DNA of 64,000 nt. Source: a virus. Taxonomy: Duplodnaviria > Caudoviricetes. The DNA is taken from IMG/VR virus record IMGVR_UViG_3300017766_003100, positions 32,001 to 96,000 of that record, one strand, 5' to 3'. Positions 40,009 through 41,259 of the stretch are shown piece by piece. The position numbers were made by a program, and so were the translations under genes. Under the pieces are notes generated by a model. That model made no database searches. It saw only the letters and a program-made list of their open reading frames with translations, and was not told where the DNA came from. Positions within the stretch are counted from its first letter, which is position 1; each line of letters opens with the position of its first letter.

Positions 40009-41259
40009 ATGTCAACAATATTTGTACAAATAGCCTCATTTAGAGACCCCCAACTCAATCCAACCTTAGAAGATTTAATATCCAAAGCAAAATACCCTAA
40101 AAAACTTAGAATTGGTATTTGTAATCAATTTAATGAAAATGATGAATTTAATCTTGACCATTATAGAAAGGATAAAAGATTTAGAATTATTGATGTAAAA
40201 GATATAGATTCACCAGGTGTTTGTTGGGCAAGAAATCAAGTTCAACAATTATATTCAGGAGAAACATATACATTACAAATTGATTCCCATATGAGATTTG
40301 AACAAGATTGGGATGAAATATTAATTAATATGTTAAAAGACCTTCAATCAAAAGGATATCCAAAACCTTTGTTGACTGGTTATGTCTCATCATTTGACCC
40401 AGATAATGACCCACAAGGTAGAGTAACTGAACCTTGGAGAATGACATTTGATAGATTTATTCCTGAAGGTGCTGTATTCTTTTTACCCGAAGTTATTCCA
40501 AATTGGAGGGAATTAAGTGGGCCAATTCCCGCAAGATTCTACTCAGCACATTTCTGTTTCACATTAGGTGAATTTAGTAATGAAGTTCAACACGACCCTG
40601 AATATTATTTCCACGGAGAAGAGATATCTGTTGGTGTTAGAGCATTCACCCACGGATATGATTTATTTCATCCACACCGAGTTATTATTTGGCATGAGTA
40701 TACAAGAAAAGGAAGAACCAAACAATGGGATGTTGATAAAGTTTGGTTTAAGAAAAACGAAAAATCCCATGCAAGAAATAGAAGATTATTCTCGATGGAT
40801 GGTGAAGTATATAATCCTGAAGAATTTGGTAAATACGGATTTGGTACTGAAAGGACTTTAGAAGATTATGAGAAATATGCAGGTATAAAGTTTAATAGAA
40901 GGGGTGTACAGAAATATACAACGGATAAAAACTATCCTCCTAATCCATATAATTTTGAAACTGAGGAAGAATACTTAAATAGTTTTGCAAGTGTATTCAA
41001 ACATTGTATTGATGTTCATTTTGGTCAAGTACCTGAAAAGGATTATGATTTTTGGGTTGTAGCATTTCACGATAATAAAGACGAAACGATGTTTAGACAA
41101 GATGCTGATATCAATGAAATTAATAGAGTTTTACAAGACCCTGATGGTTATTGTAAAATATGGAGGGAATTTAATACCATAACAAAACCATCTTATTGGG
41201 TTGTGTGGCCACACTCAAAATCAAAAGGATGGTGTGATAGAATAACAGGTAATTTATAA
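40009..41259 (+). CDS. GT60-like (Skp1/polypeptide alpha-GlcNAc-transferase-like) glycosyltransferase
   Basis: TIFVQIASFRDP, GVCWAR, YTLQIDSHMRF..DWD, SAHFCF, FHGEEI..G.R..THG.D.FHP...IWHEY. Confidence 0.8.
   Translation: MSTIFVQIASFRDPQLNPTLEDLISKAKYPKKLRIGICNQFNENDEFNLDHYRKDKRFRIIDVKDIDSPGVCWARNQVQQLYSGETYTLQIDSHMRFEQDWDEILINMLKDLQSKGYPKPLLTGYVSSFDPDNDPQGRVTEPWRMTFDRFIPEGAVFFLPEVIPNWRELSGPIPARFYSAHFCFTLGEFSNEVQHDPEYYFHGEEISVGVRAFTHGYDLFHPHRVIIWHEYTRKGRTKQWDVDKVWFKKNEKSHARNRRLFSMDGEVYNPEEFGKYGFGTERTLEDYEKYAGIKFNRRGVQKYTTDKNYPPNPYNFETEEEYLNSFASVFKHCIDVHFGQVPEKDYDFWVVAFHDNKDETMFRQDADINEINRVLQDPDGYCKIWREFNTITKPSYWVVWPHSKSKGWCDRITGNL

Follow-up and report, generated by a model that had tools for sequence, protein, structure and literature searches.

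We analysed a 64,000-nucleotide stretch of viral DNA (Duplodnaviria; Caudoviricetes; positions 32,001 to 96,000 of IMG/VR virus record IMGVR_UViG_3300017766_003100), hereafter the window, which encodes a glycosyltransferase (GT) of family GT60 at positions 40009..41259 on the plus strand. The gene opens an operon that follows genes for tail-fibre-like proteins and for a protein with Pro-Thr (PT) tracts, and in related loci and genomes PT tracts are concentrated upstream of the GT60 gene and abundant where the enzyme is encoded. We put at about an even chance the reading that the GT60 enzyme and its operon glycosylate the PT tracts of phage appendage proteins.

A predicted soluble GT60-type glycosyltransferase

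The open reading frame (ORF) at 40009-41259 starts with ATG and encodes 416 amino acids (aa). In a Pfam profile search it matched PF11397 ‘GlcNAc’ (GT60) with an E value of 7.6e-73 and 246 bits, against a curated threshold of 21 bits. The alignment falls into two stretches, the best of which covers profile positions 95-351 of 352, and in relatives the second stretch corresponds to roughly profile positions 2-45. PHROG 24687 ‘glycosyltransferase’ matched the ORF over its full length (E 3e-167). Among 43 aligned homologues, the most distant at 35% identity, six residues are invariant: D92 and H94, which form a DxH motif, E204, E205, R211 and H229. The protein is laid out as a catalytic domain of approximately residues 1-326 and a C-terminal beta-sandwich of the fibronectin type III (FN3)/immunoglobulin (Ig)-like kind at residues 327-416, and its AlphaFold2 (AF2) model is confident (predicted local distance difference test, pLDDT, 95.8; predicted template modelling score, pTM, 0.89). 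Folded alone, residues 327-416 gave a generic FN3/Ig sandwich (pLDDT 94.6, Z 7.7), for which a fold search returned no match to a lectin or carbohydrate-binding module. Neither the sequence nor the AF2 model contains an N-terminal hydrophobic segment, and because the model opens with strand beta-1 already at residue 4, the protein is predicted to have no signal peptide or membrane anchor.

A fold search of Swiss-Prot placed Dictyostelium Gnt1 (Q8T1C6), the N-acetylglucosamine (GlcNAc) transferase that acts on Skp1, at the top (E 1.5e-24, 25% identity, query residues 3-326), followed by polypeptide N-acetylgalactosamine (GalNAc) transferases (ppGalNAc-Ts) at E ~1e-11. The leading matches among Protein Data Bank (PDB) structures were GalNAc-T4, T2, T1 and T12 and Toxoplasma GalNAc-T3 (E ~1e-10), many of them with bound mucin peptides, and the cell-wall polymer GTs TarS, RmlT, GlfT2 and TarP appeared at lower ranks. 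A sequence search of solved structures with the GT60 protein returned nothing useful. Sequence identity to GT27, the family of the animal ppGalNAc-Ts, is 11-17%, and although the modelled catalytic core is GT27-like, the model places the protein outside GT27 because it has neither a ricin-type lectin domain nor a type II membrane anchor.

Every GT60 feature that could be tested was present, and profile, motifs and modelled fold identify the protein as a true full-length GT60-type GT-A glycosyltransferase that is predicted to be cytoplasmic. An earlier, sequence-only reading had described it as a full-length GT60-like enzyme with no signal peptide and as kin to the Skp1 GlcNAc-transferase and the ppGalNAc-Ts. 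The Pfam score far above threshold, the beta strand at the very N-terminus, and the ranking of Gnt1 as best fold neighbour with the ppGalNAc-Ts second bear out these descriptions.

Pro-Thr tracts accompany the GT60 gene

Ending 59 nt before the GT60 ATG, on the same strand, is an ORF (39416..39949, +) that translates into a 177-aa modular, Cys-containing protein with PT tracts at residues 69-96 and 158-177. It is one of four ORFs of the window in which a protein-level check found PT tracts, and we regard all four products as candidate acceptors. The others are a 308-aa protein in which TPT/PTVT-type tracts, at residues 69-133 and 138-202, together span about 130 residues (29588..30514, +), a 777-aa protein with tracts at residues 353-376 and 713-776 (27209..29542, +), and a 641-aa DUF285 protein with a tract at residues 390-423 (46860..48785, +). 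The 777-aa protein had no Pfam match, and tblastn against the phage database found no homologue of it. The tracts consist of 35-42% Thr, 27-30% Pro and 6-8% Ser, and because synonymous codons are mixed within them, they appear to be maintained at the protein level rather than as a simple DNA repeat; the pattern CCNACN repeated three times matched the window 10 times, as against 0 times in 100 shuffles. Dense Thr/Pro acceptor-type tracts and a candidate initiating enzyme are encoded together here, as they would be in a mucin-type system.

Three Gly_rich_2 paralogues with tail-fibre and minor-tail PHROG matches (36706..39347, +) precede the 177-aa protein gene, and from them we infer a fibre or appendage module. 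No terminator-like site lies between the 39416-39949 gene and the GT60 gene, and the GT60 operon is probably co-transcribed with the fibre and PT-protein genes before it. The sequence-only reading had placed a PT-repeat gene on the same strand 59 nt ahead of the enzyme, as the ORFs and their tracts confirm, and had let that gene end a fibre operon. The preceding tail-like genes agree with the latter point, and an operon end at that gene is a reasonable interpretation of the layout.

We next consider where PT tracts fall across relatives. ORFs were called in 80 IMG/VR loci, which were collapsed to 58 distinct architectures. A PT-tract gene occupied the position immediately upstream of GT60 (-1) in 45% of these, position -2 in 42% and position -3 in 29%; the share was 0% at position +1 and 6.5% at six or more genes away. 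PT genes were found among the three upstream genes in 34 of 45 architectures, and their enrichment near GT60 has a Fisher odds ratio of 9.2, with a p value (7e-18) that overstates the evidence because the loci are related. With the tracts masked, 71 of the 101 PT proteins neighbouring GT60 belong to one modular family, the commonest PT family there, which includes the 39416-39949 protein. Record G012 has 26 (PT)4 matches, of which 25 are no more than 3.2 kb away from GT60; at the protein level these are real PT tracts.

Genomes with and without the enzyme also separate completely by PT content. We counted matches to a (PT)3 DNA pattern, for which a reversed control pattern gives 0-2 matches; the counts are approximate because the pattern is strand-blind, and the tracts of the window, phage XacN1 and G012 were verified at the protein level. 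The presence or absence of PF11397 was checked directly in cultured and uncultured phage-database records, and the GT60 genes of four complete relatives (G001-G004) came from the IMG/VR relatives search. The seven GT60-positive genomes had 11-39 matches (39 in G001, 24 in G002, 22 in G003, 27 in G004, 31 in XacN1, 23 in Xoo-sp13 and 11 in RAS14), whereas the eight GT60-negative large phages had 0-1: a single match in SCTP-2, and 0 in RaK2, Atu_ph07, phiKZ, RSL1 and the uncultured LR756502, LR745206 and LR756500 of the 460-640 kb class. In a sample of (PT)6-bearing IMG/VR records, GT60 was found in 9 of 37, and in 6 of the 8 that were at least 85 kb long, proportions that are confounded by clade and record size and come without a base-rate control.

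The GT60 operon in the window and in XacN1

The operon (40009-44358) is tightly packed and holds four genes, with GT60 first. It continues with a 227-aa putative class I S-adenosylmethionine (SAM) methyltransferase (Methyltransf_24-like; 41262..41945, +), a 250-aa putative GT2-like GT-A glycosyltransferase (41933..42685, +) and a 557-aa protein that joins an HtrL_YibB domain to an extra C-terminal domain (42685..44358, +; PF09612, E 1.7e-16). The two middle genes have no Pfam match and are leads from an Atlas language-model feature search, which scored 0.95 for the former, with neighbouring clusters carrying PF13578, and 0.98-0.99 for the latter, with clusters carrying PF00535. The earlier expectation of downstream GTs and methyltransferases thus holds insofar as tailoring-type genes share the operon with GT60, and these two assignments stand as leads. 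A Pfam search gave no match for the C-terminal half of the 557-aa protein. The whole protein is 42% identical to XacN1 ORF330 over its full length, and most relatives encode a protein of ~555 aa downstream of GT60, making the HtrL_YibB gene a conserved GT60 partner. A bidirectional terminator-like hairpin (44357..44384), found in a scan for terminator-like sites, closes the operon.

The cultured relative XacN1 encodes orthologues of GT60 (ORF334, 48.6% identity) and of the HtrL_YibB protein (ORF330), with a carbamoyltransferase gene between them. The XacN1 GT60 operon converges on the genes of the baseplate wedge and on ORF325, whose 3313-aa product contains a PT tract in frame. True TPT-type tracts were found in ORF232-237, ORF350 (beside head completion), ORF369-372 (beside tail sheath) and ORF384. 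XacN1 virions contain at least two Schiff-stained glycoprotein bands, the proteins of which were not named, and the authors of that work proposed ORF328 and ORF334 as makers of the virion glycoproteins (PMC5852040). We also observed a NodU/CmcH-type carbamoyltransferase between GT60 and HtrL_YibB in XacN1-type operons and in a metagenomic relative (L081:10415-12712, L214:4736-6361). This gene content suggests O-carbamoylated sugars in XacN1-type operons, as opposed to the methylation suggested in the window.

Distribution of the enzyme

A single search returned more than 7,000 homologues of the GT60 enzyme, the best 120 of which are 73-98% identical, and clustering at 50% identity splits the family into 4,695 clusters. 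At least 164 close relatives were found in IMG/VR, where the longest contig to carry one measures 322 kb. Its occurrence in sequenced phages is confined to four jumbo phages (XacN1, Xoo-sp13, CM1 and RAS14), and orthologues occur in cultured Xanthomonas and Stenotrophomonas jumbo phages. GT60 was found in 15 members of a set of 20 PolB relatives; because the other five are fragments that end beside PolB, the gene seems to belong to the core of a freshwater jumbo-phage clade with a wide distribution.

More distant members of the family turned up in other settings. A 2461-aa bacterial protein (P0125; L213:10001-17386) contains four PF11397 stretches together with PF13640 prolyl-hydroxylase-type domains, in the context of an ordinary bacterial chromosome with tRNA synthetases, Tat and SurE. 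By its domain content it looks like a fused hydroxylase and GlcNAc-transferase, a bacterial parallel of the eukaryotic Skp1 pathway. In a complete 108-kb viral record, a distant GT60-like ORF of 339 aa (L202:8304-9323; PF11397, E 1e-21) adjoins a 735-aa protein with long (Val-Gly)n repeats (L202:9333-11540, -), the C-terminal part of which has, by eye, the look of a Hint/intein-type domain; all (PT)4 DNA matches in that genome are this (Val-Gly)n repeat on the opposite strand. Record G018, in which all pattern matches adjoin a distant GT60-like gene, was dropped as an independent case of PT tracts, its repeat being (Val-Gly)n on the opposite strand.

A putative pathway and its alternatives

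We propose that the soluble cytoplasmic GT60 enzyme would bind a metal through the DxH motif and a later His and, late in infection, would move N-acetylhexosamine (HexNAc), probably GlcNAc from uridine diphosphate (UDP)-GlcNAc, onto Thr and less often Ser in PT tracts. The acceptors would be the PT tracts of phage appendage proteins, modified before or during assembly, and the downstream enzymes of the operon would extend and methylate the glycan. The product would be stiff, protease-resistant, mucin-like linkers on the virion.

Several points weigh against this proposal. PT tracts do not need the GT60 enzyme, as they can be present in complete small phages that lack it. The associations are phylogenetically non-independent, and the contrast between seven GT60-positive and eight GT60-negative genomes represents one or two independent evolutionary events only. 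Within the clade, the 20 PolB relatives include no informative GT60-negative member in which GT60 and PT tracts might have been lost together. The adjacency of GT60 and PT genes could be inherited synteny, because most PT neighbours come from one modular gene family. The complete relative G001 (L053) has no PT gene within 10 kb of GT60, and in XacN1 replication genes lie directly upstream of it. We infer the donor, the acceptor residue, the timing and the presence of the PT proteins in the virion, and the sugar, linkage and acceptor of the enzyme are putative. Gnt1, moreover, modifies one specific cytoplasmic protein, Skp1, on hydroxyproline (Hyp) and does not act on mucin tracts. A complex prediction for the GT60 protein with the 177-aa PT protein scored 0.00 in the absence of control runs and counts neither way.

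These points leave room for the enzyme to modify a single phage or host protein, in the manner of Gnt1 on Skp1, with PT adjacency reflecting inherited gene order and nothing else. Such an activity would suit the nearest characterised relative, a single-substrate cytoplasmic enzyme, as well as the predominance of one family among the PT neighbours and the lack of directly adjacent PT genes in G001 and XacN1. It would, however, leave unexplained the abundance of PT tracts in every GT60-positive genome tested and their near-absence from the eight GT60-negative ones, and a three-gene extension and capping set is better suited to a sizeable glycan than to a single regulatory sugar; we consider this explanation unlikely. 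Alternatively, the operon could make or modify a non-protein glycan (host lipopolysaccharide (LPS), capsule, a teichoic-acid-like polymer or a phage polysaccharide) and so serve superinfection exclusion or receptor masking. The HtrL_YibB family occurs in LPS core loci, the lower fold matches TarS, TarP, RmlT and GlfT2 act on cell-wall polymers, and the window encodes many further GTs and methyltransferases. Yet polypeptide transferases lead the fold matches, Gnt1 by a wide margin, none of the four operon proteins has a membrane segment, no flippase or polymerase partner was found in the window, and the operon sits in the fibre module rather than in an early or moron region, all of which makes a non-protein product improbable in our view.

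The two remaining alternatives concern the chemistry of the acceptor. PT-tract prolines might be hydroxylated first and then receive GlcNAc on Hyp from GT60, the order of events known from the Skp1 pathway and from Hyp-rich glycoproteins of plants. The best match, Gnt1, is itself a Hyp transferase, and the 2461-aa bacterial protein fuses four GT60 stretches to PF13640 domains of the prolyl-hydroxylase type. However, PF13640, PF03171 and PF13661 oxygenases are absent from the four complete relatives, XacN1 has a sub-threshold match only, and a Pfam search found no prolyl-hydroxylase-type oxygenase among the window ORFs, so that a host enzyme would be required. We judge the Hyp route very unlikely and, because no phage-encoded prolyl hydroxylase was found in the four complete relatives, Thr is the more likely acceptor by gene content and by analogy with the mucin-type GT60 enzymes of Dictyostelium and T. 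cruzi. Glycosylation of phage DNA, for instance on hydroxymethyl-pyrimidines to evade restriction, is the least credible of the possibilities and would surprise us greatly. GT-A enzymes of DNA-hypermodifying phages do exist, and a dUTPase/dCTP-deaminase-like gene is present in the window, but the known phage DNA GT-As are JGT/TarP-like, have R...DDD...EDY/F motifs and are encoded beside a C5-methyltransferase, 5mYOX or ThyS (bioRxiv 10.1101/2023.12.21.572611). DNA glycosylation is unlikely here because those motifs, likenesses and neighbours are not seen: the enzyme has a DxH motif and matches peptide transferases best, and Pfam families for C5-methyltransferase, 5mYOX and ThyS are missing among the window ORFs.

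Glycosylation of PT tracts on appendage proteins can also be framed more broadly, as a whole, globally common jumbo-phage lineage that coats its fibres or appendages with a phage-built mucin-like layer, in which GT60 primes Thr and its partners extend, methylate or carbamoylate the glycan. Its members would include the cultured XacN1-like phages as well as freshwater phages whose hosts are probably Bacteroidota. We offer this wider version tentatively, as one that may well prove wrong.

Other features of the window and clues to the host

The window has ~29% G+C, encodes PolB, PhoH, dUTPase and an SNF2 helicase, and sequenced phages include nothing close to it. Another GT and methyltransferase cluster (11473..24383, -) comprises GT2, GT1/GT4-like and two-domain GTs with FkbM and class I methyltransferases; across this 13-kb block the GTs are interleaved with PhoH, dUTPase and a PolB-type exonuclease, and the cluster may feed the same glycan pathway or extend its glycan. 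The window’s traits resemble those of freshwater ‘moraphages’, whose genomes measure 200-307 kb and share four core groups of glycosyltransferases, and whose hosts are predicted to be Bacteroidota (PMC12619734). A lone minus-strand gene (44385-45908) encodes a 507-aa protein with weak matches to DUF3244 and to Por_Secre_tail, a type IX secretion C-terminal domain. These matches hint that the host belongs to the Bacteroidota and that the phage sends this protein through the host's secretion machinery. The TATTTATA late motif was not enriched in the window, with 13 occurrences found against 18 expected.

Two further proteins stood out. A 1845-aa protein of the fibre region (30528-36065) has database homologues only in LR756502, LR745206 and LR756500, unannotated uncultured phages of 462-642 kb that have neither GT60 nor PT tracts. 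A 909-aa protein (56519-59248, -) begins with a full Fe/Mn superoxide dismutase at residues 27-216, followed by ~690 residues with no family match.

Significance and comparison with known systems

If the proposed pathway is real, it would give bacterial viruses their first described GT60-initiated pathway of mucin-type O-glycosylation, with XacN1 as a cultured model, and phages would be building mucin-like glycoproteins with an enzyme family that protists use for mucin-type O-glycosylation. It would also provide a simple cytoplasmic system in which to study the glycosylation of dense Thr tracts, and would account for the abundance of glycosyltransferases among the ‘core genes’ of freshwater jumbo phages. 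A glycan coat could alter phage stability, protease resistance, adsorption and recognition, and glyco-engineering would gain a useful tool in a soluble O-GlcNAc/HexNAc transferase that modifies peptides and is active in bacteria.

Our literature search turned up no mention of GT60 in phages and nothing that ties GT60 to PT tracts there. The sequence-only reading went further, holding that no acceptor-plus-enzyme system had been described in phages, and this was too strong: O-glycosylation of mycobacteriophage capsids and tail tubes by phage-encoded GTs has been published (Freeman 2023, as cited in PMC12619734), and the XacN1 authors made their proposal for ORF334 (PMC5852040). Phage virion O-glycosylation is thus already known as a kind.

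Among characterised enzymes, Gnt1 is the closest in form, sharing PF11397, the best fold match, a soluble cytoplasmic GT-A architecture and the DxH motif. It differs in that its target is a single Hyp, formed beforehand by a prolyl hydroxylase, in a single protein; the phage relatives encode no hydroxylase of that type. The phage enzyme, for its part, carries an additional FN3-like domain at its C-terminus, and its gene lies in a glycan operon beside Thr-rich tracts. Dictyostelium modB, the GT60 enzymes of Trypanosoma cruzi and the animal ppGalNAc-Ts (GT27) start mucin-type O-glycans on Thr in Pro/Thr-rich tracts. The phage enzyme resembles these Golgi GT60 and GT27 enzymes in its metal site of DxH plus His, and peptide-bound GT27 structures are its top PDB fold matches. 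They are, however, type II membrane proteins of the secretory pathway, whereas the phage enzyme has no anchor, and where GT27 enzymes have a ricin-type lectin domain it has a generic FN3/Ig sandwich.

The mycobacteriophage system is of the same general kind as the one proposed here, in that phage-encoded GTs decorate the phage’s own structural proteins in the bacterial cytoplasm. Instead of long PT tracts, its enzymes, said to be non-GT60, reportedly modify the C-termini of the capsid and tail-tube subunits; the hosts, too, belong to another phylum. XacN1 shares with the window the orthologous GT60 and HtrL_YibB genes and has many TPT-type tracts in large proteins of its structural region, along with Schiff-positive virion glycoproteins. 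It differs in its gammaproteobacterial host and in having a carbamoyltransferase in place of the methyltransferase and GT2 pair, and its operon converges on baseplate and giant-fibre genes, whereas that of the window follows fibre genes.

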